Shown here: one piece after another, positions 13,019 to 41,784 of the stretch
How positions within the stretch are numbered: the first letter of the stretch is position 1
Layout of the letters: each line of letters begins with the position of its first letter
Virus record (IMG/VR): IMGVR_UViG_3300045988_124839
From: a virus
Lineage: Duplodnaviria; Heunggongvirae; Uroviricota; Caudoviricetes
Reading direction: 5' to 3' (one strand)
Length of the DNA: 44,051 nt
Notes under the pieces: model-generated
The model's database searches: none
The model's input: the letters and a program-made list of their open reading frames with translations, nothing else
What the model was told of the DNA's origin: nothing
Translations under genes and position numbers: made by a program

Positions 13019-13984
13019 TTAATTATCAGTAGATTGTTCCTCTAGTAACAACTCAATTCTGCTTAGTATTTCTTTAGATATTTTTCGGCTATCAATTTTT
13101 ATAGTTACAAAATTACCTTTATATCTAGCCGTGATCCCTTCCCCATATTTTTTCTCGTCTTTTGTTTTTTCCTCGTCGCCAACCAGAACAGAGTCAGATA
13201 ATATTTGTATAATCCGTGAAGCTTCTAAATCCTCGCCGTTTTTTTTAATTGCCAGAAGATGATGAGCAGCATTGCTCATGGCAGCCATGTTTTTTTTGTA
13301 GACCTTAAACAAAGAATCTCCAGCACGAGCTGACAGTTCTCCTGGATGATTGAAGATAGCTAATATATCTTTTGGTAGACCAGCTGTATTAATACAGCGA
13401 GTGATAATATTTCTGTCTATATTTTCAGCCTCGGCTAATGCTTTAACGTTACCATCAAAGTCATTTAGCTTGCGTAAGTATCTCTTTCCTCTTTCGTATG
13501 CACTAATAGGCCTATAATCGTTACCAATTTGGGATAACCAATGCATCTGTTCATCGTCGAGATCACCTATTAAGACGCGATAGTCACATCCTGTTAATAT
13601 CGCTGCTTTTCTTCTACGTGAGCCGTCAGCGACTTCAACGATTCCAGACACTTTTCTGGCGAAAGCTGGATTTTGTTGTCCAGACGTTAGAAAAGATGGG
13701 ATTAAATCGGCTAGAGAGGATTCATTTAATAAATCTTGATCGCGTTCATTACCTAGCCATACCATTGTTGCCATTTCAACTTTATCTGCGGGAATTGTCT
13801 CTAACTTAAAGTTAACATTACGTCCGCATACTGGCAAAGTTATGCTGTTACCGGTTAATGAACTCAGTTGACGTTTTAAATCACCAACCATAGGTGATAC
13901 GGGCTGATGTTCAGGGGCATGATGATTATTACTCATAATGCGATTAATATCTGGAGCATTTTTTAGAAGAGAGCGCTGTTTCAT
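13019..13984 (-). CDS. sopB: partition protein SopB (ParB-type centromere-binding protein)
   Basis: 321 aa; immediately downstream of and overlapping (ATGA) the ParA-type ATPase gene; size and arrangement as F/N15 sopAB. Confidence 0.85.
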   Translation of the reverse strand: MKQRSLLKNAPDINRIMSNNHHAPEHQPVSPMVGDLKRQLSSLTGNSITLPVCGRNVNFKLETIPADKVEMATMVWLGNERDQDLLNESSLADLIPSFLTSGQQNPAFARKVSGIVEVADGSRRRKAAILTGCDYRVLIGDLDDEQMHWLSQIGNDYRPISAYERGKRYLRKLNDFDGNVKALAEAENIDRNIITRCINTAGLPKDILAIFNHPGELSARAGDSLFKVYKKNMAAMSNAAHHLLAIKKNGEDLEASRIIQILSDSVLVGDEEKTKDEKKYGEGITARYKGNFVTIKIDSRKISKEILSRIELLLEEQSTDN

Positions 13985-15150
13985 TATTCGTTCTCCCAGC
14001 GAGGTTTTATTAGATCATCAAAAATTTCTCGGCAAACAGGGTCCCATATAGAAACAGCATTTCTCCATGCATTCAATGTTGAACGTTGGTTTGCTGCTTG
14101 TTCAAATACTGTTCTCATTTTTATCTGGCCTTTACCTACTTCATCGGTAACGCGTACAACCTGACGTAATACCATTGATCCCCATGTATTTCTTATTTGT
14201 TCTTCCATCCATCGTGATTGATTCCCTGTAGTGAGACTATATTTAGTCAGAAGTAAGCGAACGGTTGGCTCAAATCCACCTAGGTCAACGCTTTCCAATA
14301 GATCGAGAAGCATTGTGAAAAACTGTAGAACAGAAGCGTAATCAAATAATTCTGCAGGTGTAGCAACAACAATAACGTCAGCGGCACAAACAACGTTAAT
14401 GGTTCCTGTACCGAGGTTCGGAGCACTATCTATAACGATAACATCGTAGTTATCCCAAACTGATTCAATAGCTGCGCGCAGCATAAGGTGTGGAGGATGA
14501 GGCAATTTACCCTGAGCATGATATTGCATGAGATCTGTTTCTATACGATGTAAAGCTAGGCAGCTAGGGATAATGTCTAGCCCAGGCCAACATGTTGGCT
14601 TTATAGCATATTCAGCGTTATCGCGTTCTCCTAAGTAAAATGGCAGTAAAGTATCCTCGGCATGGATATGTAAATCAGGAACATAACCGTGATACATAGA
14701 GGCCGTGCCTTGAGGATCGTTACCTTCAACCAAAAGAACACGATGACCTTGTAATGCTAACCATTGAGCTTGATGTACCGCAGACGATGTTTTATAAACG
14801 CCGCCTTTGTGTGACATAACGGCAAGCACAACAGGGTTTTTATCTTGTGGTCGTTGGTTTGGGTTGCCAAAAACTGCTCGCATACTGTTGATTTGATCTA
14901 TGGTATAACCAGCACGACGTTCAATTCTTCCTCTCATTTCAAAGTCAGGTGCAGGTAAACGCCCGCTCTTCTCAGCATCTCTAATTGCTTGAGGAGTTAC
15001 ACCAATTAAATCTGCTACTTCAGTTATACCCCATCGGCGGGTGATACGCCGAGCTTCAGGACTATCATCACCGAATTGAGCGATAGCAATTGCTTGGGTC
15101 ATTTCTTGACCTCTCGTAACACAATCTTGCAATAACTTTTTCAAAGACAT
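13984..15150 (-). CDS. sopA: partition ATPase SopA (ParA, type Ia with N-terminal HTH extension)
   Basis: 388 aa; deviant Walker A MSHKGGVYKTSS; long N-terminal extension typical of type Ia ParA. Confidence 0.9.
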   Translation of the reverse strand: MSLKKLLQDCVTRGQEMTQAIAIAQFGDDSPEARRITRRWGITEVADLIGVTPQAIRDAEKSGRLPAPDFEMRGRIERRAGYTIDQINSMRAVFGNPNQRPQDKNPVVLAVMSHKGGVYKTSSAVHQAQWLALQGHRVLLVEGNDPQGTASMYHGYVPDLHIHAEDTLLPFYLGERDNAEYAIKPTCWPGLDIIPSCLALHRIETDLMQYHAQGKLPHPPHLMLRAAIESVWDNYDVIVIDSAPNLGTGTINVVCAADVIVVATPAELFDYASVLQFFTMLLDLLESVDLGGFEPTVRLLLTKYSLTTGNQSRWMEEQIRNTWGSMVLRQVVRVTDEVGKGQIKMRTVFEQAANQRSTLNAWRNAVSIWDPVCREIFDDLIKPRWENE

Positions 15151-15798: not shown

Positions 15799-17706
15799 AT
15801 GAGCAAAGTAAAAATCGGTGAATTAATAAACTCACTTGTTAGCGATGTTGAGTCAATAGATAACTCTGACCGTCCTCAAGGGGAAAAAACAAAAAAAATA
15901 AAAGCTGTTGCATTAAAATTTAAAAATGCATTATTTAATGACAAGCGAAAGTTTAGGGGGAAAGGATTAGAAAAAAGAATTACAGCCAACACATTCAATG
16001 CCTATATGAGCAGGGCCAGAAAACGGTTTGATGATAAACTTCATCATAGCTTTGAAAAAAATATACATCGCCTATCTGAAAAGTATCCTTTATATAATGA
16101 GGAGCTATTATCATGGCTTTCTCTACCTGCTGCCGATATTCGCCAGAGAATGTCAGCTTTACAGGCAAAATTAAAATTAATTCTCCCTTTATCAGAAGAT
16201 TTATCTAATATCAGAATTGGTGATAACAAAAGTCATAATAAGTTATTAAAATTATCAAATAAATATAAAGAGTGGCAATTCGCCATTTCTGATTTAACTA
16301 GCGATAACTGGAAAGATAAGCGCGATTATTTATATAAATTACTACAGCAAGGATCTGCCTTACTTGAGGAGTTGAATCAGCTAAAAGTTAACCATGAGAT
16401 TCTCTATCATCTTCAACTAAGCCCTGCCGAACGCGCATCTATCCAGCAACGATGGGCAGACGTTCTGCACAATAAGAAACGTAACGTGGTGGTCATTGAT
16501 TACCCTAAATATATGCAAGCTATTTACGATATTATAAATAGCCCTGCTACATTAAATAATCTAAACACTCGTTCAGGTATGGCTCCTTTGGCATTTGCAC
16601 TTGCTGCATTGTCAGGAAGACGAATGATTGAGATTATGTATCAAGGTACATTTACTGTTTCTGGTAAGTATACCGTTGATTTTTTAGGCCAAGCAAAAAA
16701 AAGAACTTCTGATGATATAACCAGAAAAATATATACATTATGCGAAGCAAAAACATTTGTTTATTTAATAAATGTACTTCGCTCATGCCCAGCAGCATCT
16801 GATTTTGATGATGTCGTTAAAGGTTATGGAGATAACGACACACGCTCTGAAAACGGACGGATTAATGCCATATTAGCAAAGGCTTTTAACCCGTGGGTTA
16901 AATCATTTTTCAAAGATGACCGCCGTGTTTATAAAGATAGTCGTGCTATTTATGCCCGTATTGCGTATGAAATGTTTTTCCGCGTAGATCCTCGTTGGAA
17001 AAACGTAGATGAGGATGTTTTCTTTATGGAAATTTTAGGCCATGACGATGAAAACACTCAATTACACTATAAGCAATTCAAGCTGGCCAACTTCTCAAAG
17101 ACATGGAGGCCAAATACTGGAAACGAAAATACCAGGCTGGAAGCATTGCAGCAGCTTGATGACGAAATGCCAGGATTCGCCAGAGGAGATGCCGGAGTTC
17201 GTCTGCATAACACAGTTAAGCAGCTGGTAGAGCAGGACCCCTCTATAAAAATCACGAACAGCACTCTAAGAGCATTCAAATTTAGCCCTACAATGATTAG
17301 TCGATACCTGGAATTTGCTGCTGATGCTCTGGGGCAATTTGTTGGCGAAAATGGACAATGGCAGCTGAAAATAGATTCTCCAGAAATCGTTATGCCTGAC
17401 GAAGAAGAGCTGGAAGCAATACCTGAACAGACGGATGAATTATCAGAGGATGACGATCTGGATGACGACGAAATTGAGATAGAGGAAGAGGAAGAGGAAG
17501 AGGAAGAGGAAGAGAGCGTAGAAGAACAGCAACCGCCCGCGCCTTCTTCACCTGTATCTAAGCCGGTATTTAAGCCTGTGAGAAATATTGGTGATGGCTC
17601 ATACGTTGTTGAGTTTCATTATAATGGCCAGAATTATGCTTGGTCCGGCAGTGCAAACAGCCCTATATCAGCAATGCAGTTAGCATGGCTGACATATTTC
17701 GGATAA
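15799..17706 (+). CDS. telN: protelomerase TelN
   Basis: 635 aa; N-terminus MSKVKIGELIN...RPQG.KTK.IKA...KNALFNDKRKFRGKGL.KRITANTFNAYMSRARKRFDDKLHHSF and much of the body match N15 TelN as recalled; acidic Glu/Asp-rich C-terminal tract; RBS AGGAGAGGAAAG. Confidence 0.95.
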   Translation: MSKVKIGELINSLVSDVESIDNSDRPQGEKTKKIKAVALKFKNALFNDKRKFRGKGLEKRITANTFNAYMSRARKRFDDKLHHSFEKNIHRLSEKYPLYNEELLSWLSLPAADIRQRMSALQAKLKLILPLSEDLSNIRIGDNKSHNKLLKLSNKYKEWQFAISDLTSDNWKDKRDYLYKLLQQGSALLEELNQLKVNHEILYHLQLSPAERASIQQRWADVLHNKKRNVVVIDYPKYMQAIYDIINSPATLNNLNTRSGMAPLAFALAALSGRRMIEIMYQGTFTVSGKYTVDFLGQAKKRTSDDITRKIYTLCEAKTFVYLINVLRSCPAASDFDDVVKGYGDNDTRSENGRINAILAKAFNPWVKSFFKDDRRVYKDSRAIYARIAYEMFFRVDPRWKNVDEDVFFMEILGHDDENTQLHYKQFKLANFSKTWRPNTGNENTRLEALQQLDDEMPGFARGDAGVRLHNTVKQLVEQDPSIKITNSTLRAFKFSPTMISRYLEFAADALGQFVGENGQWQLKIDSPEIVMPDEEELEAIPEQTDELSEDDDLDDDEIEIEEEEEEEEEEESVEEQQPPAPSSPVSKPVFKPVRNIGDGSYVVEFHYNGQNYAWSGSANSPISAMQLAWLTYFG

Positions 17707-19727: not shown

Positions 19728-19919
19728 TTACTCCCCGTTCACCGAAAATTCACGATAGAAACGTTTCCACATACGATAAGTCTGCGCAAATTGTTCACCA
19801 CGAAACATCGCCTTCCTGGCCTTCATGTTTTCCTTGTGAGACTTTCGGTCTATGAACCAAAACCATAGATGGAACACACAAAGCAAGAGACACAAAGATA
19901 ATATCCAATCATTACCCAT
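19728..19919 (-). CDS. small hydrophobic protein (63 aa)
   Basis: Internal ATG at 19919 overlapping the repA stop; hydrophobic segment LSLCLLLCVFHLWFWFI. Confidence 0.35.
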   Translation of the reverse strand: MGNDWILSLCLLLCVFHLWFWFIDRKSHKENMKARKAMFRGEQFAQTYRMWKRFYREFSVNGE

Positions 19920-22900
19920 AGAAAGCGCCCTGCTCTTCGTAGCTGCATGAGCTATTCCCCGTAATGTATTCACGTAACCGCCGCAGCTCATTGCTGGAAA
20001 GGTGATCCATGAACTCTGTGAGGTACAGGGATGCAAACGTCATAGCTATGCTGGCTGATGACCATGATGACATAGTGGCCAACTCCTCACTGGAAAGCGC
20101 ACTCATCGCCCAGGACTCAGGTACAGCCACTGGCAACACGGCCAAAGCCTCAGAAATTACTGAATGAGGGGCGTTTTGAACCTGCTCGTTTGTGGATCGC
20201 GTTTTATCATCCATATATATATTGAGATCCAAATCGCGATCCATTTCGATGGCTGTCTTCTCGGCTTTACGCGTTTTTAGGGTTAGGCCATCTTTCTGAC
20301 GCTGAACAAGAATATCCAGCATAAATGCCGCTGATTCAGGCTCAACAAAACGCAAGGTTGGACGCTTATCGCCGTCTCTGCCGCGACGTTTACCTGTTTT
20401 AAGGCCAAGAGAGTCGCAAATGTTTTTAAACAACGCTTCCGGCACTTTAGGCTTCCCTTTTGGCGTCATAAAACCACCAATGTGCAGAACGTTATTCAAC
20501 AGGTCACGGCGTTCGGCTGTCATGAGGTTATCTCGAGCGAATTTGAGACGCTCCTGAGTCGCCTCGCCGGTCATAGTCTCAGGGTTGATACCGCAGTCGA
20601 TAAAGTACTGCCGGAGAGTTGCTGATTTAAGCGCATAGAAACCGCGCGCCCCGACTTCAACAGTAGGAGTAGCTTTTACCTTGTGATCGATTATTCCAGG
20701 GAATTTAGTTTTAAAGACATCATCAGCCTGCTCGCGAGTCATCGCGGTCACTACAAAATATTGCCACTGTCCCGCCTGACGGTATGCGTAGGTAAAATTG
20801 ATGGCTGCTTCTTCCCGGTCGTAACGACGAGCTGTTACCTCATCTAAAAGCATTGTTTCATAGCGGCGAATTTTGTCTCGAGCACCATCGAAATAGAATT
20901 TTAGCGTGCCTTCTTCAACCGGTAGTTTCAGTTCGTTTTCAATATCCCAGCGGACAAGTTTTGCCTGTTCTTCAAGCGTCAGCGCGCGTTTTTTTAGCAG
21001 TTCTTCACGCTCTGATTCTTGTGGAGTTTCTGTATTGAGGTGCAGATCCAGTGTCTGTTCCCACACAATATCCCGCGCTTCTTTACGCAGATCTTTACCG
21101 ATATCATTCGCAGCATAATCGGTGGCCAGCGGCGATACCTTATAACCGTCGCTGTGCATGATGCAGATCATGTTGCTGGCGTAGTCGTTACGCGCAGTCG
21201 CTTCAATTGCGGCTGCTTTAATTTTCATCCTGGTAAAGTCGGTATTGGCCACCCCCATTGATATACGGTCGCCATCGAAAACGACATCCGTCAGTTCACC
21301 GTTCATACCTGCGGTAGCAAGCAATGCCTGGGCGAATGCTCGTTCTATTTTTTGCGGGTCAGTTTCACGTTTTGCACGAGCTTTATCAAAGCCGATAATA
21401 AATTCTTTCGCTGTACGGTCGCGGCGTAGCATTTGCACTGCGTCGCTGGGTACAACTTCACCACAGAACATGCCGAAATGACGGTCAAAATGTTTTTGCT
21501 CAATCGACACGCCGGATGAAATAGACGGGCTATAAATCAGGCCGTCGTATTTTTTGACCATCTTTTTCGGTTGATTGGTAAATGCTTCAACTTCTGGCTC
21601 TGGTTTGTTTTTCTGGTTTACACACAGAAATTTCTTACCAGGAAAATGCATTCTCAGGGTGGCTGTCACATCTTCTGCAAAGGTGGAGCTGTCGGTGGCC
21701 AACATGATTTTTTCCCCATCCGATACAGCTTTCACCACCTCGGTCATGATGCGATCTTTTTCTGTATAAAAAACCCGGATTGGCTCACCTGTTTCGCGGT
21801 TGCGAACATCAACAGGTAATTCAATTACGTGGATCTGCAGCCATGCCGGTAAACCTAGTTCTTCACGGCGTTTCATAGCCAGTTCAGCCAGGTCAACCAG
21901 CAGATCGTTCGCATCAGCATCTACCATGATTGGGTGTTGTTCCGTTCTGGCCAGCGCGTCAATTAGCGTATTGAATACAGCCACCGGGTTTTCCATAGCC
22001 CGACCGGAAAGAACGGCACGTAGCCCTTGTGTGGCCTCGTCAAAGCCAAAATAGTCGTGCTGGCGCATCAACGGTTGCCAGCAGTTTTTAACAATCGAGT
22101 TTATGCAGATGGTCAGTTTACTGGCGTATGGAGCCATTTCCTGATAGCCAGGATCCTGATAGTGCAGGATATCGGCTTTTACACCTTTTCCTTCTGTCAT
22201 CATTTCCCACAGGCCACCAATAAGGGAGACACGGTGAGCAACAGAGATACCACGTTCTGAGCTATGCATTAACGGTCGTAACAATCCAGTAGATTTGCCG
22301 GAACCCATACCAGCACGGACGATGACTATCCCCTGTAGTGATTGCACGTACTTCAGGACATCATCGGTCATTACCGAAGTTTCAAAACGCTTATAGGTGA
22401 TATGTTGAGGGCGTTTATTGGGATCAGTTATGCGTTCGCTGAAAGAGCGCGGAGCCTGGGCAATACGGCACTTTTTATTCAGGCGACGGGCAATGTGGTC
22501 TTTTACCGTAGCGCGATAGATATTTTCCAGTCCCATTTCACGCAGAACGATGCAGAACATGTTAAATAAATCTGACGGACTGTTAGGAACCGGACAGGTT
22601 AGCATGCCAATATCAACCGCTCTCAGCAGCTCTTTGGCAAAAGTACGACGGTTATCCCGCTTAATTGTCTTCAGGCGGTTGAGCGTCAGAGATAGCAAAT
22701 CAGTACCGGTTTTCAGGCGGTTTGCTGTTGCAAATAGTTGACGTGCTGTTTCACGAAGTCCACGTAGTTTGTGCAGGTCGTTGAAGTCACTGCACTCCAT
22801 TTGCGGATCGTCTTCAAAAGTTGGATAGACGCAGCGGACATCGTTGAATTTCGATAAGATTTCATAGCCAGTCCGCAGGCCTGTATTCCCTTTTCCTTCT

Positions 22901-23907
22901 GTGGCAGATTTCCGGTCATTATCCAGTGCGCAGGTGATTTTTGCCGCCGGGTACATGTTTACCAGTTGTTCCACAACATGAACCATGTTGTTAGCGGATA
23001 CAGCGACAACCACAGCGTCAAAGCGTTTATCTTTTTTCGTGGCAAGCCAGATGGATGCACCAGTAGCAAAACCTTCTGTAACAGCGATGTTTTGCGCCCC
23101 TTTCAGCTCACCGATAACAAAGCAGGCACCGACGAAATCGCCGCTGGTTACTGCGCTGGTCTGGTATTTCCCACCTTGTTTGTCGATTCGCTGCCAACCC
23201 ACAATACGACCATCATAACGACCGTCCAGGTGAGCCAGAGGGATAGCCATATATGTGGTTGGCCCCCGGCTCCATTTCGCACTGTCGTGACTGGTCACGC
23301 GACGCACATCACATGAACTAAAAACGTCACGAATACCTTTTTTAATCGCATATGGCCATGAGCCGTCTTCAGCCGGAGCATGTTCCCACGCGCTGTGGAA
23401 TGCCAGCCATCCCAGCAAACGTTCATGGTCCATTTGGTTGTTTTTCAGGTCATTAATTCGTTTTTGTTCTTCACGGCGACGACGTGCTTCGGCCTGACGT
23501 TCTATTCTTTCCCGTTCTTCTTCCGGTTGTGCGACCACGGTCGCATTATTCCGTTGTTGCTCACGGCGATATTCAGAAAACAGGAAGGAGAAACCGCTCC
23601 ATGAGCCAGCATCGCTGCCTTTATGGACGAAGTTAATGAACGGGTAATCAATCCCTTTGCTGTGTTCCAGCCTGGAGTAAATTTCTACGCGTCCTTTCAG
23701 GCTCTTTTCGAGAGCTTCTGGAGATGTTTTATTGTATGAAGAGTAACGCTCACCCCCCCCGCGAGGGTTGAGTTGGATGTTGTCGGAACAGGCAGGCCAG
23801 TTGATACCAGCCATCTGTGCCAGCTCGGTTAGTTCATCCCGTGCTGCTTCAATTAGCGAGAACGGATCGCTGCCAAAGCGATCCGCATAGAAATCGTTTA
23901 ATGTCAT
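19912..23907 (-). CDS. repA: replication protein RepA (primase-helicase)
   Basis: 1331 aa; Walker A GMGSGKST; size and position (leftward, between telN and cB) as N15 RepA (about 1320 aa). Confidence 0.85.
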   Translation of the reverse strand: MTLNDFYADRFGSDPFSLIEAARDELTELAQMAGINWPACSDNIQLNPRGGGERYSSYNKTSPEALEKSLKGRVEIYSRLEHSKGIDYPFINFVHKGSDAGSWSGFSFLFSEYRREQQRNNATVVAQPEEERERIERQAEARRRREEQKRINDLKNNQMDHERLLGWLAFHSAWEHAPAEDGSWPYAIKKGIRDVFSSCDVRRVTSHDSAKWSRGPTTYMAIPLAHLDGRYDGRIVGWQRIDKQGGKYQTSAVTSGDFVGACFVIGELKGAQNIAVTEGFATGASIWLATKKDKRFDAVVVAVSANNMVHVVEQLVNMYPAAKITCALDNDRKSATEGKGNTGLRTGYEILSKFNDVRCVYPTFEDDPQMECSDFNDLHKLRGLRETARQLFATANRLKTGTDLLSLTLNRLKTIKRDNRRTFAKELLRAVDIGMLTCPVPNSPSDLFNMFCIVLREMGLENIYRATVKDHIARRLNKKCRIAQAPRSFSERITDPNKRPQHITYKRFETSVMTDDVLKYVQSLQGIVIVRAGMGSGKSTGLLRPLMHSSERGISVAHRVSLIGGLWEMMTEGKGVKADILHYQDPGYQEMAPYASKLTICINSIVKNCWQPLMRQHDYFGFDEATQGLRAVLSGRAMENPVAVFNTLIDALARTEQHPIMVDADANDLLVDLAELAMKRREELGLPAWLQIHVIELPVDVRNRETGEPIRVFYTEKDRIMTEVVKAVSDGEKIMLATDSSTFAEDVTATLRMHFPGKKFLCVNQKNKPEPEVEAFTNQPKKMVKKYDGLIYSPSISSGVSIEQKHFDRHFGMFCGEVVPSDAVQMLRRDRTAKEFIIGFDKARAKRETDPQKIERAFAQALLATAGMNGELTDVVFDGDRISMGVANTDFTRMKIKAAAIEATARNDYASNMICIMHSDGYKVSPLATDYAANDIGKDLRKEARDIVWEQTLDLHLNTETPQESEREELLKKRALTLEEQAKLVRWDIENELKLPVEEGTLKFYFDGARDKIRRYETMLLDEVTARRYDREEAAINFTYAYRQAGQWQYFVVTAMTREQADDVFKTKFPGIIDHKVKATPTVEVGARGFYALKSATLRQYFIDCGINPETMTGEATQERLKFARDNLMTAERRDLLNNVLHIGGFMTPKGKPKVPEALFKNICDSLGLKTGKRRGRDGDKRPTLRFVEPESAAFMLDILVQRQKDGLTLKTRKAEKTAIEMDRDLDLNIYMDDKTRSTNEQVQNAPHSVISEALAVLPVAVPESWAMSALSSEELATMSSWSSASIAMTFASLYLTEFMDHLSSNELRRLREYITGNSSCSYEEQGAFYG

Positions 23908-24840: not shown

Positions 24841-25062
24841 ATGAAACCAGAAGAACTTATTCGCCACTTTGGCAGTGTAGAAAAAGCAGCGGCAGGGGTA
24901 GGTGTAACACCCGGAGCTGTTTACCAATGGTTAACCGCTGGAGAGATTCCTTCATTGCGGCAAAGCGATATTGAAGTTCGTACTGCTTATAAGCTGAAGA
25001 GTGACTTTACAACTCGGCGGGTAAAGCAGTCGATTAAGGAGAGTCGTCAGCGTGGAGCTTGA
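24841..25062 (+). CDS. cro: Cro-like HTH regulator
   Basis: 73 aa from the internal ATG at 24841 (ORF track starts at 24814); HTH GSVEKAAAGVGVTPGAVYQW; divergent from the repressor gene. Confidence 0.6.
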   Translation: MKPEELIRHFGSVEKAAAGVGVTPGAVYQWLTAGEIPSLRQSDIEVRTAYKLKSDFTTRRVKQSIKESRQRGA

Positions 25063-25762
25063 GTATATACGCAGCTGCGTCTCTACGGCATTGGCTGATG
25101 TTCATTATCGCCAGCGTGGCATTCTGGAGGTCCAGCTTGAGCAGATGCGTCTCGGTAGGTCAGGACGGTTTAACAATAAACCAGTCCGGTCAATCAGTGT
25201 GGGGGATGATAACTCATACGAAGTGTCCGTTCCTGCTGAGCCGGTTAGATTCCACCAGGGGAAAACATTTAAACAATCATCAATGTTGCTCACTGATATT
25301 GATTTTCAGAGCGCCAGCTGGCGCAGGGCTATTGGTCAGTTGAATAACGAGGAATCAGCCTGGCTTTATTATTGCTACGGATGCAAGCCTGATTACAACA
25401 ATGATGTGATTGTTTGTCAGTGGTTATGGCTTGATTTTCTGGTTGCTCATTCGGGGGGCGGCTTAAAAAAAATGAAGGCCTCCACGAAAAAAGCCATGCG
25501 GAAATTGATTTATTACGCGGCACAGCAGGTTAAATCAGAACTTACGTGTGCTGAGGCAGTTGATGAGAGAGAACAGGACAGGCATCTGAGTTTTCTACTG
25601 AATATATCTATTGATAGCTGGAGACAAGATTATAAAGAACGTTGGCTTTTAATTAAGTCGCGATGTCTGAGCTTAAATCGAACTGCATTATTAAATGCGG
25701 CGGAGAAGCGCAGTGAAATCATCAAACGCCATCGGGCAGGAAGTGCCATTCTGCCTTTGTAA
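25052..25762 (+). CDS. hypothetical protein (236 aa), candidate regulator downstream of cro
   Basis: GTG start overlapping the cro 3' end; no recognisable motif; any Q-like antiterminator role is inferred from position only. Confidence 0.45.
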   Translation: MELEYIRSCVSTALADVHYRQRGILEVQLEQMRLGRSGRFNNKPVRSISVGDDNSYEVSVPAEPVRFHQGKTFKQSSMLLTDIDFQSASWRRAIGQLNNEESAWLYYCYGCKPDYNNDVIVCQWLWLDFLVAHSGGGLKKMKASTKKAMRKLIYYAAQQVKSELTCAEAVDEREQDRHLSFLLNISIDSWRQDYKERWLLIKSRCLSLNRTALLNAAEKRSEIIKRHRAGSAILPL

Positions 25763-25769
25763 ACAAGTT

Positions 25770-26015
25770 ATGTTCAGGAAACCGTCGAAGCCAGAATTAA
25801 GGTATTCGGGGGTAAGAAATGAATATGTTATCTGGTGTCCAACTTGTGGTTACAGGACACGACCAGATAGTAATAAGCAGTCTGTAATTGCCGATTGGTA
25901 TTTATCAAATCAGCCAGGTAATAAGCATATAGAAAATCTTTGGATTAAGCGTTACTTGGAAATCAGAGAGGGTGCGACCGTGGTCGCACAAGAAAATGAA
26001 AATAACGCCATTTAA
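25770..26015 (+). CDS. small zinc-ribbon-like protein
   Basis: From the internal ATG at 25770; CPTCGY motif; the 3' end contains centromere-like palindrome 1. Confidence 0.35.
   Translation: MFRKPSKPELRYSGVRNEYVIWCPTCGYRTRPDSNKQSVIADWYLSNQPGNKHIENLWIKRYLEIREGATVVAQENENNAI
25972..25989. other. SopB-binding-like centromere palindrome 1 (GTGCGACC-GT-GGTCGCAC)
   Basis: 8-bp inverted arms around a 2-bp centre, same architecture as the F sopC core TGGGACC-AC-GGTCCCA; one of four copies in the window. Confidence 0.7.
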
Positions 26016-29180: not shown

Positions 29181-29423
29181 ATGGATAAAAAGGCATTGCT
29201 TTTTGAAATGATACGAAAACGGAGCGAAAAGAGCTTTTCTGATGGTGGTGATGGGTTTGTTTTCGCTTCGATGCTTGCTTTTGATGTTGGGTTAAATAGC
29301 AGAATTGTTAAAAGGATGCTTGATTCTGCTGTCCGTACTGGACTTCTTGAGAAAGTTGATCGTGGCATAGGGAGAGAGCATAAGTATCGGGCCACACAGC
29401 AGTTTACGCAGTTAATTCATTGA
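29181..29423 (+). CDS. hypothetical protein (80 aa)
   Basis: ORF with GGAGGG upstream; no recognisable motif. Confidence 0.4.
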   Translation: MDKKALLFEMIRKRSEKSFSDGGDGFVFASMLAFDVGLNSRIVKRMLDSAVRTGLLEKVDRGIGREHKYRATQQFTQLIH

Positions 29424-29505
29424 AAATTGACCGTAAAGTTTGAGTTTTACCCTGTAATTTTATACAGTATAAATAACCTTTTTTAGTTAAATGGTATGAG
29501 ATTTA

Positions 29506-29709
29506 ATGTCTGAAGCAGCCGTATCAACTCTTGAACAACTCGATTCAAATTTAAGAGATATTGACGCCGTTCTGGATCTGGTTAGCGTCACCCTGGCTTC
29601 TCCAGAAGCCAGCCTACATATTGGTGAGGTTTCACGACTCATCAACATGTCGCGAGAGATTGCCCAGCATTGTCAGAAAACTATCGCTGTTGAGCGTTCA
29701 CATCATTGA
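29506..29709 (+). CDS. hypothetical protein (67 aa)
   Basis: ORF with weak RBS; AT-rich upstream region. Confidence 0.3.
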   Translation: MSEAAVSTLEQLDSNLRDIDAVLDLVSVTLASPEASLHIGEVSRLINMSREIAQHCQKTIAVERSHH

Positions 29710-29751
29710 TGCACACCCCGCCCTTCTGGACGGGGTAGTAAAAGAGTCTAA

Positions 29752-30039
29752 TTAATAAACAGCGCGAATATCGATGGTTGCGCCGCAGGCATGAGCATAT
29801 TTAGCCAAAGTTTTCATACTTGCCCCTAAAGGATTGCTTTCCAGGCGGCTGATGGCTGACGGTCGCAACCCCATTCGTTCAGCCAGAGCTGATTTCGTTA
29901 AACCTGCTCTTTCCCTCATTTCGTATAACATTTCGACCATCTCCAGCTCTTTGTCGGCCTCTTCATATCCTTTGACGGCTTCTGGAGTGTTGAGGAGTTT
30001 TTCTTTTACTTCGTTAAACGGGATGCCTTTCGCTTTCAT
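29752..30039 (-). CDS. HTH (XRE-family) antitoxin, HigA-like
   Basis: 95 aa; HTH LTKSALAERMGLRPSAISRLE; start overlaps the stop of the upstream toxin gene (TGATG); toxin-first order as in HigBA/Tad-Ata modules. Confidence 0.7.
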   Translation of the reverse strand: MKAKGIPFNEVKEKLLNTPEAVKGYEEADKELEMVEMLYEMRERAGLTKSALAERMGLRPSAISRLESNPLGASMKTLAKYAHACGATIDIRAVY

Positions 30040-30350
30040 CAGTTCATCTCCTTCAGGCGAGTTCTGGCGATTTCGATAGCCTTCACCGGTGTTTTCTGTG
30101 TCTTTTTTACAAATGCATGCAATAGATAAATTTCGTTACCAGTCGCGTAGGCGTACAGCGTTCTTGCGATGTTTTTATCCCCTACTCGTAGTTCAAAAAG
30201 CCCTCCACCTATTACACGGCTATGGGGCATCTTCAGTTTGTTGCCTTCTTTCTCCAGTCGCTCAATTAATCTGGTCATGCGACCTCGCAAATCATCTGGT
30301 AGTTCAAGCAGTTCATCCAGTGCTGCAGGGTGGGTTATCACGTTAAACAT
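30039..30350 (-). CDS. RelE/HigB-type toxin (Gp49-like)
   Basis: From the internal ATG at 30350 (GGAGG RBS 7 nt upstream); about 103 aa beginning MFNVITHPAALDELLEL; small basic RelE/ParE-superfamily-like protein. Confidence 0.68.
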   Translation of the reverse strand: MFNVITHPAALDELLELPDDLRGRMTRLIERLEKEGNKLKMPHSRVIGGGLFELRVGDKNIARTLYAYATGNEIYLLHAFVKKTQKTPVKAIEIARTRLKEMN

Positions 30351-30515
30351 ATTATAGCCTCCATATCCATAAAATACACTAAAACAAGAAAACAACGCAA
30401 ATTAAAAATTTCACTAAAAAGCGAAAAATAACACTGGATGTGTTCGTTTGGCAGAGTTACAGTTCGTGTCATTGAGGGGCAATAACCCACTAACTATATG
30501 AATTTGGAGGATATT

Positions 30516-30737
30516 ATGAATTATCAAGGTAACGAAAAAATGCGCGACGACGTTGCGGAGATAGCTAACGAACTGTATGAGTTGTGGCAGAAGGTTGAGC
30601 GTTTCGAAAAGGAATATGGTTTCAACAGTACCAACCTAACAGACCGACTGGCTGGTCGCTTAGTTGGGACTATGGGGCCAAAACTGGCTGAGTTGAACCG
30701 CTTTATGGCTGATGTTGATTTCCAGTTTCAAGATTGA
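30516..30737 (+). CDS. hypothetical protein (73 aa)
   Basis: GGAGG RBS 6 nt before the ATG at 30516 (ORF track starts at 30498). Confidence 0.45.
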   Translation: MNYQGNEKMRDDVAEIANELYELWQKVERFEKEYGFNSTNLTDRLAGRLVGTMGPKLAELNRFMADVDFQFQD

Positions 30738-30750
30738 TTAGAGAGGCGTT

Positions 30751-30978
30751 ATGAATATTAATGAAATTCGTGGAAATATGACTGAAGCGGCCCTGAGTGT
30801 GGAATGTGTTATGCGTGGATACCCACGCATTTCCCTGAAAGAGTTAAGCGAAGCCTGTTTTTTGAGTCAAGCTGCCGTTGAATTTATCATCGAACAGATG
30901 ATCTGTTTTGGGGTTGCAAAGCGTAGCGGATCTGGTCGATATTCTTTGACCGATGAATATAAGCAGGCAACTTTCTAA
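30751..30978 (+). CDS. hypothetical protein (75 aa, possible HTH)
   Basis: AGAGAGG RBS; ends 5 bp before centromere-like palindrome 2. Confidence 0.45.
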   Translation: MNINEIRGNMTEAALSVECVMRGYPRISLKELSEACFLSQAAVEFIIEQMICFGVAKRSGSGRYSLTDEYKQATF

Positions 30979-30983
30979 AAGCT

Positions 30984-31001
30984 GTGCGACCACGGTCGCA
31001 C
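30984..31001. other. SopB-binding-like centromere palindrome 2 (GTGCGACC-AC-GGTCGCAC)
   Basis: Same 8-2-8 palindrome as site 1 with the centre inverted; about 20 bp upstream of a putative promoter. Confidence 0.7.
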
Positions 31002-31020
31002 AGCACAAAAACGAAAAAGC

Positions 31021-31049
31021 TTGGCAAAATGACGGTTTTTAGTTATTGT
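31021..31049 (+). promoter_or_regulatory. putative sigma70 promoter (candidate late promoter, PR'-like)
   Basis: TTGGCA, 17-bp spacer, TATTGT; followed within about 60 nt by a hairpin and an intrinsic terminator, as in lambda PR'-qut-tR'. Confidence 0.3.
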
Positions 31050-31087
31050 TTTGTTAAGTTGGGTTTTTTGTACCCAACAGCCAACAA

Positions 31088-31110
31088 GCCGCCTTTATGG
31101 CGGTTTTTTT
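31088..31110 (+). terminator. rho-independent terminator (tR'-like)
   Basis: GCCGCC-TTTAT-GGCGG followed by TTTTTTT; upstream of the methylase and lysis genes. Confidence 0.6.
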
Positions 31111-31200
31111 GTGCCTGAAAAGTGGGCGCAGGACAAGTTGCAGCTTGTCCTGCGGTCAACCCATGCCAGAGCTATAGGCTGAACCTAAAGCCCACCCGCG

Positions 31201-32322
31201 ATGCGCATCGCCGGGTTAGCTTACCCAGGCAAAAAAATAATAGCTATGTTCAAAACCACTAATATTCATGGCGCACAACTCGTTTGCGCAGATTCTCTGC
31301 AATTTATCAAAACCATCCCTGATAACTCGGTCAATTTGATTGCAACAGACCCACCATACTTCGGCGTAAAAGCTAACGCATGGGATAACCAGTGGGATAG
31401 CGATGCTGACTTTTTGGGGTGGATTGACGAATTTTTGGCAGAATTTTGGCGGATATTGGCCCCTAATGGCAGCCTGTATATGTTTACCGGCTCTCGCCTT
31501 GCGTCAAAAATTGAATTATTAACTCGCGACCGTTTCAATGTTCTGAACCATATCATTTGGGCTAAACCCAGTGGTATGTGGCGCGGTTGTCATAAAGAAA
31601 GTTTAAGGGCTTATTTTCCTGCTACTGAAAGAATATTATTTGCAGAGCATTACGGCGCGTCAGGTTATGCTAAAGGTCAGTCAGGTTATGCTTCAAAATG
31701 TGCAGATTTAAGAAAAAATATTTTTTCTCCACTAATTGATGCTTTTTCGCTGGCTCGCCGTCAGTTAGATATATCAGCCGCAGACATTAATTCAGCGACA
31801 GGAAAGCAGATGTGTTCACACTGGTTTTCTTATTCGCAGTGGCGGCTTCCATCATTAATTGATTTTAATAAACTATGCGAATTATTTCGCAGGAAGGCAG
31901 ATTCACTCGGTGTCCCGTGTCCATATCCTTTTAATGTTGATTATTCAGAACATGAAAAGCGTTATAGCGTTCTGAAATTGCATTATGAGGAAGTAAAGAA
32001 GCAGTATGATGATTTGAAGGCTCAGTATGAAAATTTACGCCGTCCATTTCATGTTACTGCTGATGTACCTTATACCGATGTATGGGAGTTTCCTCCTGTG
32101 CAATATTATCCTGGCAAGCACCCATGTGAAAAACCTGCAGCGATGATGGAACATATTATAAAGAGTAGTTCACGCCCCGGAGATATCGTTGCCGATTTCT
32201 TTATGGGATCAGGCTCAACTATTAAAGCTGCGCTGAAGTTAGGACGTCAGGCAATAGGTATTGAGATTGAGGGCGAACGTTATCTTCAGACAGTTGATGA
32301 AGTGAAAAAGTTATTTGAGTAA
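31201..32322 (+). CDS. DNA N6-adenine methyltransferase (beta class)
   Basis: DPPY catalytic motif (NLIATDPPYFGV) N-terminal to the AdoMet motif FxGxGS (DFFMGSGST); alternative start at ATG 31246. Confidence 0.85.
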   Translation: MRIAGLAYPGKKIIAMFKTTNIHGAQLVCADSLQFIKTIPDNSVNLIATDPPYFGVKANAWDNQWDSDADFLGWIDEFLAEFWRILAPNGSLYMFTGSRLASKIELLTRDRFNVLNHIIWAKPSGMWRGCHKESLRAYFPATERILFAEHYGASGYAKGQSGYASKCADLRKNIFSPLIDAFSLARRQLDISAADINSATGKQMCSHWFSYSQWRLPSLIDFNKLCELFRRKADSLGVPCPYPFNVDYSEHEKRYSVLKLHYEEVKKQYDDLKAQYENLRRPFHVTADVPYTDVWEFPPVQYYPGKHPCEKPAAMMEHIIKSSSRPGDIVADFFMGSGSTIKAALKLGRQAIGIEIEGERYLQTVDEVKKLFE

Positions 32323-33993: not shown

Positions 33994-34011
33994 TTGCGAC
34001 CGTGGTCGCAC
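33994..34011. other. SopB-binding-like centromere palindrome 3 (TTGCGACC-GT-GGTCGCAC)
   Basis: 8-2-8 palindrome with one mismatch at the first base. Confidence 0.65.
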
Positions 34012-34213: not shown

Positions 34214-34231
34214 GTGCGACCGTGGTCGCAC
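34214..34231. other. SopB-binding-like centromere palindrome 4 (GTGCGACC-GT-GGTCGCAC)
   Basis: Perfect copy of the site-1 sequence, 23 bp upstream of the cassette gene start. Confidence 0.7.
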
Positions 34232-40484: not shown

Positions 40485-41784
40485 TCTCCCGCATATTGCC
40501 AGCATGGCCTTTAATGAGCCGCTGATGCTTGAACCCGCCTATGCGCGGGTTTTCTTTTGTGCGCTTGCAGGCCAGCTAGGGATCAGCCGCCTGACGGATG
40601 CGGTGTCCGGCGACAGCCTGACTGCCCAGGAGGCACCCGCGACGCTGGCGTTAGCCGGTGATGGTGACGGACCACGACAGGCCCGCAGTTATCAGGTCAT
40701 GAACGGCATCGCCGTGCTGCCGGTGTCCGGTACGCTGGTCAGCCGGACGCGGGCGCTGCAGCCTTATTCGGGGATGACCGGTTACAACGGCATTATCGCC
40801 CGTCTGCAACAGGCTGCCAGTGACCCGATGGTGGACGGCATTCTGCTCGATATGGACACGCCCGGTGGAATGGTGGCAGGGGCATTTGACTGCGCTGACA
40901 TCATCGCCCGTGTGCGTGACATAAAACCTGTATGGGCGCTGGCCAACGACATGAACTGCAGTGCAGGTCAGCTGCTTGCCAGCGCCGCCTCCCGGCGTCT
41001 GGTCACGCAGACCGCCCGGACAGGCTCCATCGGCGTCATGATGGCTCACAGTAATTACGGTGCTGCGCTGGAGAAACAGGGCGTGGAAATCACGCTGATT
41101 TACAGCGGCAGCCATAAGGTGGATGGCAACCCCTACAGCCATCTTCCGGATGACGTCCGGGAGACACTGCAGTCCCGGATGGACGCAACCCGTCAGATGT
41201 TTGCGCAGAAGGTGTCGGCATATACCGGCCTGTCCGTGCAGGCTGTGCTGGATACCGAGGCTGCAGTGTACAGCGGTCAGGAGGCCATTGATGCCGGACT
41301 GGCTGATGAACTTGTTAACAGCACCGATGCGATCACCGTCATGCGTGATGCACTGGATGCACGTAAATCCCGTCTCTCAGGAGGGCGAATGACCAAAGAG
41401 ACTCAATCAACAACTGTTTCAGCCACTGCTTCGCAGGCTGACGTTACTGACGTGGTGCCAGCGACGGAGGGCAAAAACGCCAGCGCGGCGCAGCCGGATG
41501 TGAACGCGCAGATCACCGCAGCGGTTGCGGCAGAAAACAGCCGCATTATGGGGATCCTCAGCTGTGAGGAGGCTCACGGACGCGAAGAACAGGCCCGCGT
41601 GCTGGCAGAAACCCCCGGTATGACCGTGGAAACGGCCCGCCGTATTCTGGCCGCAGCACCACAGAGTGCACAGGCGCGCAGTGACACTGCGCTGGATCGT
41701 CTGATGCAGGGGGCACCGGCACCGCTGGCTGCAGGTAACCCGGCATCTGATGCCGTTAACGATTTGCTGAACACACCAGTGTAA
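40465..41784 (+). CDS. C: head maturation protease / scaffold C
   Basis: GTG start (VTAELRNLPHIASMAFNEP...) gives 439 aa as lambda gpC; the ORF-track entry from 40351 is an upstream extension overlapping B. Confidence 0.88.
41179..41784 (+). CDS. Nu3: scaffolding protein Nu3 (in-frame nested start within C)
   Basis: In-frame ATG at 41179, about 201 codons before the C stop; inferred from the known nested C/Nu3 arrangement in lambda, start not verified. Confidence 0.4.
   Translation: MDATRQMFAQKVSAYTGLSVQAVLDTEAAVYSGQEAIDAGLADELVNSTDAITVMRDALDARKSRLSGGRMTKETQSTTVSATASQADVTDVVPATEGKNASAAQPDVNAQITAAVAAENSRIMGILSCEEAHGREEQARVLAETPGMTVETARRILAAAPQSAQARSDTALDRLMQGAPAPLAAGNPASDAVNDLLNTPV

Follow-up and report, generated by a model that had tools for sequence, protein, structure and literature searches.

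Two small overlapping genes on the minus strand, at positions 29752 to 30350 of a 44,051-nucleotide stretch of viral DNA (IMG/VR record IMGVR_UViG_3300045988_124839; Caudoviricetes), raise the question of what such a pair does for the phage that carries it. The whole of this stretch is called the window here. An earlier note, made from the letters alone, had read the genes as a toxin-first, RelE/HigB-type toxin-antitoxin pair that would favor stable inheritance of the element and might also act in phage defense. The present analysis makes it very likely that the pair is a type II toxin-antitoxin operon of the Gp49 type (Tad-Ata, HigBA-like) and the orthologue of N15 gp49-gp48 on a sister phage-plasmid, as judged from the sequence and from a structural model of the toxin.

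The host element and the gene pair

The element is an N15-like phage-plasmid of Escherichia and a sister to N15. That it is a low-copy linear plasmid prophage, as the earlier note had supposed, is borne out by the following features of the window:

13019-15150: SopB and SopA
15799-17706: protelomerase (telN-like)
19912-23907: RepA-like primase/helicase, 1331 amino acids
24153-24749: CB-like repressor
25052-25762: Q
30984-31001: partition palindrome, just beyond gp51

The last of these is one of four to five places in the window at which the partition palindrome of N15 and phiKO2, GTGCGACC(AC/GT)GGTCGCAC, is found. The toxin-antitoxin region is present in 16 of 5,426 complete E. coli genomes, in each case in a plasmid record and in none on a chromosome, and PLSDB holds it in 29 plasmid records, 28 of the 29 being non-mobilizable and most of those listed being about 46-50 kb long. 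In the PLSDB/RefSeq plasmid records the two products are annotated as a toxin of a RelE/ParE-family toxin-antitoxin system and an HTH regulator, and the records of phages PhiR46_1 and YDC107_1 call the toxin a 'hypothetical protein'; the HTH protein appears in phage records as a 'transcriptional regulator' or 'repressor'.

These two Escherichia phages are 99% identical to the window in this region, and YDC107_1 is classified as a Ravinvirus. The gene DNA of the window is about 74-81% identical to that of N15 and phiKO2, the comparison with N15 giving about 77-80%, with synonymous differences (pS) of 0.57-0.78, which is near saturation, and non-synonymous differences of 0.03-0.11. Since the DNA is so divergent from N15 and the synonymous sites are near saturation, the window is best placed, together with PhiR46_1 and YDC107_1, in a distinct Ravinvirus lineage. 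Where it could be computed, dN/dS lies between 0.02 and 0.09 for both genes (0.02-0.04 for the toxin), which indicates strong purifying selection on the toxin and antitoxin genes alike.

The neighbors of the pair are those seen in N15, with gp46/gp47-like genes on one side and gp50/gp51-like genes and a methylase gene on the other, all of them on the opposite strand. The earlier note's description of the locus as part of the early region is acceptable: the pair lies between the Q-operon genes and the block of late promoter, methylase and lysis genes, though on the strand opposite to all of its neighbors. The neighboring proteins are 60-82% identical to their N15 counterparts, those of gp46, gp47, gp50 and gp51 type 62-82%, and the toxin-antitoxin pair surpasses them all in conservation, with a toxin 92% identical to N15 gp49 and 91% to phiKO2 Gp49 and an antitoxin 85% identical to N15 gp48 and 80% to phiKO2 Gp48. 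The likeness to the tad-ata-type module of N15 that the note had drawn holds: with 92%/85% identity and shared gp46/gp47 and gp50/gp51 neighbors, the pair is the same module as gp49-gp48.

The pair is laid out as follows:

29752-30039, minus strand: predicted antitoxin gene, orthologue of N15 gp48, XRE-type helix-turn-helix (open reading frame, Pfam, orthology)
30039-30350, minus strand: predicted toxin gene, orthologue of N15 gp49, PF05973 Gp49/Tad/HigB-type, RelE superfamily (open reading frame, Pfam, orthology, model)
30048-30053, minus strand: antitoxin Shine-Dalgarno sequence AAGGAG, within the 3' end of the toxin gene and 8 nt 5' of the antitoxin ATG (direct reading)
30358-30362, minus strand: toxin Shine-Dalgarno sequence GGAGG, 7 nt 5' of the toxin ATG (direct reading of the sequence)

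The toxin frame of 103 amino acids runs from the ATG at 30350 to a TGA at 30041-30039, and the antitoxin frame of 95 amino acids from the ATG at 30039 to a stop at 29754-29752, one base being common to both in the junction TGATG. The earlier note had the toxin frame, with its GGAGG, exact to the base, and its overlapping 95-residue HTH frame is upheld both by this shared base and by the HTH_3 match given below. Small, adjacent, co-oriented and overlapping genes with the toxin first are the organization of tad-ata and higBA loci. GGAGG is invariant in the three-phage alignment of the window, N15 and phiKO2, as is AAGGAG; the former is also found in Xenorhabdus and, displaced by one alignment column, in KpLi5.

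The toxin start is taken to be the ATG at 30350 because the same start residue is found in N15 and phiKO2, because the resulting length fits the family (102-108 amino acids in nearly all full-length members among the matches listed), and because it has the sole ribosome-binding site. A 118-residue version from a TTG at 30395, which appears in the mechanical list of open reading frames, has no ribosome-binding site, a start that is not conserved and a length outside that of the family. On the sequence evidence, namely Pfam scores far above the cut-offs and little non-synonymous change, the two frames are not due to chance.

The toxin and antitoxin proteins

The toxin matches Pfam PF05973 (Gp49) with an E-value of 2.5e-29 and 101.6 bits (cut-off 23.9), its residues 12-100 covering profile positions 1-90 of 90, and PHROG 2523 with an E-value of 2.6e-43; no NCBIfam model was matched, and the Pfam search gave no ParE match. 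It has 840 homologues. Among the 120 listed, PF05973 is present in all but one short fragment, and the usual name among those that NCBI has named is 'type II toxin-antitoxin system RelE/ParE family toxin'. The PF05973 family is entered under ribosome-dependent mRNA degradation, the toxin gene coming before that of the antitoxin (PMC11980606).

An AlphaFold model of the toxin, which like the conservation figures below is based on an alignment of 51 homologues, reached a pLDDT of 90.4 and a pTM of 0.85. Its elements follow in the order E-H-H-E-E-E-E-H (E3-6, H8-15, H19-38, E44-48, E51-57, E62-70, E73-82, H89-102), which is the RelE arrangement, an antiparallel sheet of four strands against N-terminal helices, extended at the C-terminus by the long helix (residues 89-102) that is typical of Gp49-like toxins. 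The best Foldseek matches in the PDB are HigB of S. pneumoniae (6af4) and HigB1 of M. tuberculosis (7nbu and 7awk), with TM-scores of 0.71-0.76, the 7nbu structure being HigB1 on the ribosome with mRNA; RelE, YoeB and V. cholerae HigB2 come next, the HigB and RelE/YoeB structures together spanning 0.53-0.76. ParE structures score far below these, at 0.38-0.47. The Pfam Gp49 match, the alignment with HigB, the RelE fold of the model and the place of HigB at the head of the Foldseek ranking agree with the earlier note's identification of a Gp49/RelE-like toxin, and the homology search against the RelE, ParE and HigB families that it had called for gave PF05973 and HigB/RelE similarity.

The catalytic pocket proposed for HigB1 consists of K58, E66, R68, N73, R77, F93, K95, Q98 and K99 (PMC9098466). 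It was mapped onto the toxin through a phmmer alignment with M. tuberculosis HigB1 and the residue list of that paper, whose numbering is the HigB1 chain index plus 6 for K58, E66, R68, N73, R77, F93, K95A, Q98 and K99. Eight of the nine positions are aligned in the toxin (K58 with R45, E66 with E53, R68 with R55, N73 with N60, F93 with F80, K95 with K82, Q98 with Q85 and K99 with K86), and R63 lies one alignment position away from HigB1 R77. In the 51 homologues F52, E53, L54, R55 and R63 do not vary, and conservation reaches 90% or more at F80, K82 and K83. Membership of the family alone does not prove toxicity, since the M. tuberculosis paralogues HigB2 and HigB3 are non-toxic (PMC9098466). 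The equivalents of K58, N73, F93 and K99, which those two proteins are reported to lack, are all present in the toxin as R45, N60, F80 and K86.

The antitoxin matches Pfam HTH_3 with an E-value of 2.8e-12 and 46.9 bits (cut-off 23); HTH_37 stayed below its cut-off, and NCBIfam gave generic HTH matches below threshold only. About 33 N-terminal residues precede an XRE-type helix-turn-helix at approximately residues 34-92. Its nearest solved relatives in a PDB sequence search are HigA2, HipB and HigA of S. pneumoniae, and the single-sequence model is a generic XRE fold that carries no specific family signal. The Pfam match, the PDB sequence matches and the modeled fold bear out the note's reading of the second gene as an XRE-HTH antitoxin.

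Flanking sequences and the portable cassette

Further candidate elements lie on either side of the pair:

29714-29737, minus strand: G+C-rich hairpin, probable terminator, directly after the antitoxin stop (RNA fold)
30371-30400, minus strand: predicted operon promoter, with -35 TTGCGT at 30400-30395, an 18-nt spacer and -10 TATTTT at 30376-30371 (conservation)
30377-30384, minus strand: second half-site TTTTAGTG, abutting the -10 hexamer (direct repeat D1, on the downstream side of the dyad's own copy at a spacing of 35 nt)
30409-30426, no strand assigned: dyad TTTCGCT-TTTT-AGTGAAA, candidate operator, 76 nt 5' of the toxin ATG (conserved symmetry)

The cassette is portable and travels whole into unrelated genomic settings. 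A Gp49 toxin gene together with a gene for an HTH protein of 93-94 amino acids occurs in chromosomes of Buttiauxella, where the two lie between formate-dehydrogenase and hydrogenase genes, and of Xenorhabdus, Yersinia and Winslowiella; a Photorhabdus contig and a phage-like Serratia contig also carry the unit. An alignment of the 100 nt preceding the toxin ATG showed that about 80 nt 5' of the toxin accompany the cassette in most relatives; this traveling stretch holds the dyad, a -35-like TTGnGT, a -10-like TAT(A/T)TT and GGAGG. Most of the nine aligned cassettes, chromosomal ones included, have the two promoter-like boxes at corresponding positions, and the Photorhabdus cassette has no recognizable -35. 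We infer that 30400-30371 is a weak promoter of a toxin-first operon; a simple consensus scan left it uncalled because its -35 matches at only 3 of 6 positions. The same kind of scan found nothing promoter-like within the toxin gene that would serve the antitoxin. Dziewit and colleagues are said to have described, in 2007, two promoters in cassettes of the gp49-gp48 group.

Two other candidates in the upstream region were set aside. The single promoter-like site that the consensus scan called on the minus strand, at 30520-30493, is no more than chance predicts and lacks conservation in N15, and inverted repeat I1 (30351-30371 and 30497-30517) is merely a likeness between two divergent ribosome-binding regions.

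The dyad in the upstream region reads TTTCnCT-N4-AGnGAAA in consensus, the copy in the window having one mismatch. It lies 76-78 nt before the toxin ATG in N15, phiKO2, KpLi5 and Xenorhabdus as well, and is also present in the Serratia, Yersinia and Winslowiella cassettes. Changes have occurred symmetrically in both arms, giving TTTCTCT/AGAGAAA in Xenorhabdus and ATTAACT/AGTTAAT in Yersinia. Over eight sequences, from which a Photorhabdus variant with a 3-nt spacer was left out, 94.6% of cells are symmetric and there are three symmetric double changes, a result matched by 6 of 500 shuffles; with a sample this small (n=8) the symmetry is supportive rather than conclusive.

In the N15 record (NC_001901) the dyad is annotated as a putative terminator. 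As a main reading this was rejected, the RNA hairpin being weak (-5.8 kcal/mol only), its place being upstream of the promoter of the sole co-oriented genes, and the dyad being kept in chromosomal cassettes. A palindromic operator bound by the HTH antitoxin is usual for HigBA systems (PMC11980606), and the dyad at 30409-30426 is probably the operator of the antitoxin or of the toxin-antitoxin complex; this suggests that the 'terminator' of N15 at the same position is likewise a protein-binding site. A position upstream of the -35 is unusual for a simple repressor site. The second half-site stands beside the -10 hexamer, where TTTT(A/G)G(T/G) is retained in other cassettes. Farther upstream of the pair, a non-coding block of about 40 nt (30433-30475) is conserved in N15-like phages only.

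At the other end, where the antitoxin gene and the gp47-like gene converge, the hairpin at 29714-29737 probably ends the operon. The fold of 29695-29755 is worth -22 kcal/mol on the minus strand (z -3.3) and is weaker on the plus strand (-15.9 kcal/mol, z -1.5); a simple scan left the hairpin uncalled because it has no T-run. N15 and phiKO2, in an alignment read by eye, have classical hairpin-plus-T-run terminators at the equivalent place. A terminator-like site that the consensus scan placed inside the antitoxin gene falls within the number expected by chance, and in a search of 29300-31300 Rfam returned only sub-threshold, chance-level matches and no known RNA element; RyhB, for instance, scored 23.9 bits where its gathering score is 55.

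Proposed function and comparison with known systems

By the reports of Dziewit and colleagues, gp49-gp48 of N15 is said to have stabilized heterologous replicons, and the overexpressed N15 toxin reportedly was bactericidal. The course of events that we propose for the pair in the window would start from the weak sigma-70 promoter at 30400-30371, from which a single toxin-first mRNA would be made, with translation of the antitoxin presumably coupled to that of the toxin through the TGATG overlap and aided by its own AAGGAG. An antitoxin dimer may bind, through its XRE domain, to the dyad at 30409-30426 and to the half-site at the -10, repressing the operon, while its N-terminal part would bind and neutralize the toxin. 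If a daughter cell lost the low-copy linear plasmid, the labile antitoxin would decay, and the freed toxin could then enter the ribosomal A site and cleave mRNA in the manner of M. tuberculosis HigB; plasmid-free cells would halt growth or die, and the prophage would appear to be stably inherited. The pair would thus be one plasmid-maintenance function beside SopAB, the scattered partition palindromes and the protelomerase, helping a low-copy linear plasmid to persist.

This mechanism is drawn from the family (PMC9098466, PMC8265657, PMC11980606) and from papers citing the N15 locus, which in the passages concerned present that locus as a validated toxin-antitoxin module (PMC5906591, PMC3581621, PMC2701414), with a toxin neutralized by a labile antitoxin and with replicon stabilization. 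Deletion of the homologous pair of SXT did not raise the loss of the native element (PMC2654960). Since the stabilization was seen on heterologous replicons and the SXT deletion was without effect, a contribution of the pair to maintenance of the native prophage is possible rather than certain.

The SXT result would suit a different role, in which the pair is mainly an anti-phage device, acting by abortive infection or superinfection exclusion, and stabilization comes as a by-product: an infecting phage would lower the antitoxin or block its synthesis and so release the mRNA-cleaving toxin. Systems of the RelE/HigB type are capable of defense, HigB of a toxin-antitoxin-chaperone module being activated by the major tail protein of lambda (PMC11980606); no other protein pair of the neighborhood is as well conserved relative to N15, and the toxin partially matches the PADLOC NsnC profile (E 2.6e-7). 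That match, however, takes in 54 of 293 profile positions (229-282), which represent a shared RelE-like domain and not a match to the system, and the PADLOC matches of the antitoxin are generic HTH matches to several unrelated systems; in PADLOC-DB 2.0 neither protein has a full-length match to the proteins of one defense system. Unlike the defense-proven HigBAC, the pair has no SecB-like chaperone gene, and literature searches found no defense data for N15-type pairs. We consider a mainly defensive role unlikely, though a part in defense would not exclude addiction.

The pair might also be wired into the phage's own program and so be more than an addiction device, because it lies antisense to its neighbors, is the best conserved pair among them, and has the 30433-30475 block upstream. 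Lytic antisense read-through or an incoming phage would then lower the antitoxin and free the mRNase, leading to host shut-off or abortive infection. We give such wiring only a slim chance.

It is very improbable that the locus is no working toxin-antitoxin system at all, with the HTH protein a transcription regulator of the phage and the Gp49-like protein its non-toxic partner or co-regulator. The labels 'transcriptional regulator', 'repressor' and 'hypothetical protein' in the phage records would agree with this, as would the existence of non-toxic family members such as HigB2 and HigB3, but the residues that those two reportedly lack are all present here and both genes are under strong purifying selection, so that a non-toxic regulator pair is unlikely with an intact pocket; in addition, the cassette enters chromosomes as a unit with its own promoter region, and its N15 orthologue is, in the citing passages, a validated module. 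That the toxin is a ParE-like gyrase poison and not an mRNA endonuclease is scarcely credible in view of the fold ranking, the lack of a Pfam ParE match, the conserved RNase pocket and the entry of PF05973 under ribosome-dependent mRNA degradation, even though it belongs to the RelE/ParE superfamily, bears the RefSeq name 'RelE/ParE family toxin', and some toxins of its group reportedly had morphological effects, such as filamentation, in the N15 paper.

Taken as a type II toxin-antitoxin operon, then, the module is already known, being a close allele of the experimentally studied gp49-gp48 of N15 and annotated by RefSeq on plasmid records. What is added is a candidate operator, in the form of the conserved dyad, together with the phage-specific conserved block beside it. 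The main import is correct annotation, since the toxin is 'hypothetical' in PhiR46_1 and YDC107_1 and is named in the RefSeq plasmid records; the dyad, for its part, is a concrete target for work on autoregulation of Gp49-type modules.

Among better characterized systems, HigBA of S. pneumoniae (6af3, 6af4) is the solved structure closest in sequence (E 5.5e-5) and is at the top of the Foldseek list, and its HigA, of 97 amino acids, aligns with residues 11-90 of the antitoxin (E 0.009). The identity is about 24%, and the locus is chromosomal, in a Gram-positive host. HigB1 of the M. tuberculosis toxin-antitoxin-chaperone system (TAC HigB, Rv1955; 7awk, 7nbu) gives the best structural match to the toxin, with the long C-terminal helix, a TM-score of 0.76, 27-28% identity and eight of the nine pocket residues; the toxin in the window stops before the equivalent of R117. 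The M. tuberculosis system has a SecB-like chaperone gene and a chaperone-addiction tail on its antitoxin, neither of which belongs to the pair in the window, where the antitoxin gene is followed not by such a chaperone gene but by the hairpin and the convergent gp47-like frame. The N15 locus, too, is described as chaperone-less (PMC3581621).

The tad-ata modules of Paracoccus aminophilus plasmid pAMI2 and of IncC plasmids are likewise toxin-first, with a COG4679/PF05973 toxin and an XRE-HTH antitoxin. A plasmid-stabilizing role is reported for them, and the toxin of the IncC plasmids is said to be an endoribonuclease that depends on the ribosome. They differ in residing on circular conjugative or small plasmids and in no phage, and their sequences are distant, so that the comparison is one by description; Gp49-type toxins of A. 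baumannii and Tad toxins are reported to be no more than about 20% identical (PMC5906591).

By far the closest relative is gp49-gp48 of N15 itself (genes 49 and 48 of NC_001901; Dziewit et al. 2007, J Bacteriol 189:1983). Relative to N15, the dyad of the window has one mismatch (G for A), the spacer before the -10 region is 1 nt shorter, and the downstream hairpin is a different one, with no T-run. The lengths of 103 and 95 amino acids, the one-base overlap, the map position on the strand opposite to the neighbors, and the upstream dyad and promoter boxes are alike in both.

The region upstream of the toxin-antitoxin pair

The interval that separates the toxin gene from the divergent gp50-like gene contains these non-coding elements:

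30409-30426, dyad TTTCGCT-TTTT-AGTGAAA, 76 nt upstream of the toxin ATG; its N15 counterpart is at 2924-2944 of L003, our stretch of the N15 reference record (N15 record 40551-40571)
30433-30475, non-coding block flanked by the dyad and the gp50-like gene, with the minus-strand sequence GACACGAACTGTAACTCTGCC...ACATCCAGT

In the N15 reference record the dyad, upstream of gene 49, carries the label "putative rho-independent transcription terminator"; a protein-binding operator is suggested instead by where it lies and by its retention in the related cassettes of other genera's chromosomes. The adjacent block is nearly invariant across the window, N15, phiKO2 and KpLi5, despite synonymous sites that are near saturation. 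It was not found in the chromosomal cassettes when the upstream regions were aligned, and the block itself gave neither an Rfam match nor a convincing promoter.

The toxin and gp50-like genes diverge, and their ribosome-binding stretches (30351-30371 and 30497-30517, respectively) are 81% reverse-complementary to each other over 21 nt, both reading ...GGAGG-N7-ATG. The likely start of gp50 is the ATG at 30516, rather than the upstream ATG at 30498 that appears in the mechanical ORF list.

A contig of Photorhabdus luminescens (SBIJ01000063.1, our L010, positions 701-2093) carries two cassettes of Gp49-type toxin and HTH antitoxin back to back; the two are divergent and have a 184-bp intergenic region in common.

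Partition palindromes and the methyltransferase gene

The 18-bp palindrome GTGCGACC(AC/GT)GGTCGCAC, annotated in phiKO2 as a "putative plasmid partitioning site", and the downstream methyltransferase gene are placed as follows:

23529-23546, palindrome
25972-25989, palindrome
30984-31001, palindrome, exact copy, ~630 bp from the TA promoter
31201-32322, DNA methyltransferase ORF, 373 aa from the first ATG
33994-34011, weaker copy of the palindrome
34214-34231, palindrome

Copies of the palindrome are dispersed across the genome in the N15-like phages, and likewise in the window. The methyltransferase is annotated from about 31246 (window numbering) in YDC107_1, and in N15 as a protein of 284 aa, to which the longer window ORF shows only about 60% identity over its greater length; between the window and N15, the TA pair is less diverged than this ORF.

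Annotation in related records and gene order of the window

In the region matching window 29600-30560, the toxin gene is a "hypothetical protein" in both of the closest phage records, PhiR46_1 (PV340565.1) and YDC107_1 (CP025712.1), as is the antitoxin in PhiR46_1, whereas RefSeq names a RelE/ParE-family toxin on plasmid records that carry this DNA; the discrepancy is an annotation gap.

The window runs from the tail genes (1 to about 13000) through sopBA, telN, repA, cB, Q, the early genes and the TA pair to the methylase, lysis, terminase and head genes (to 44051). The order is permuted against both maps of N15, that of the virion and that of the linear prophage, and looks like that of a circularised assembly opened inside the structural genes. 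Identity to lambdoid Escherichia phages is 93-98% in the tail and head modules.
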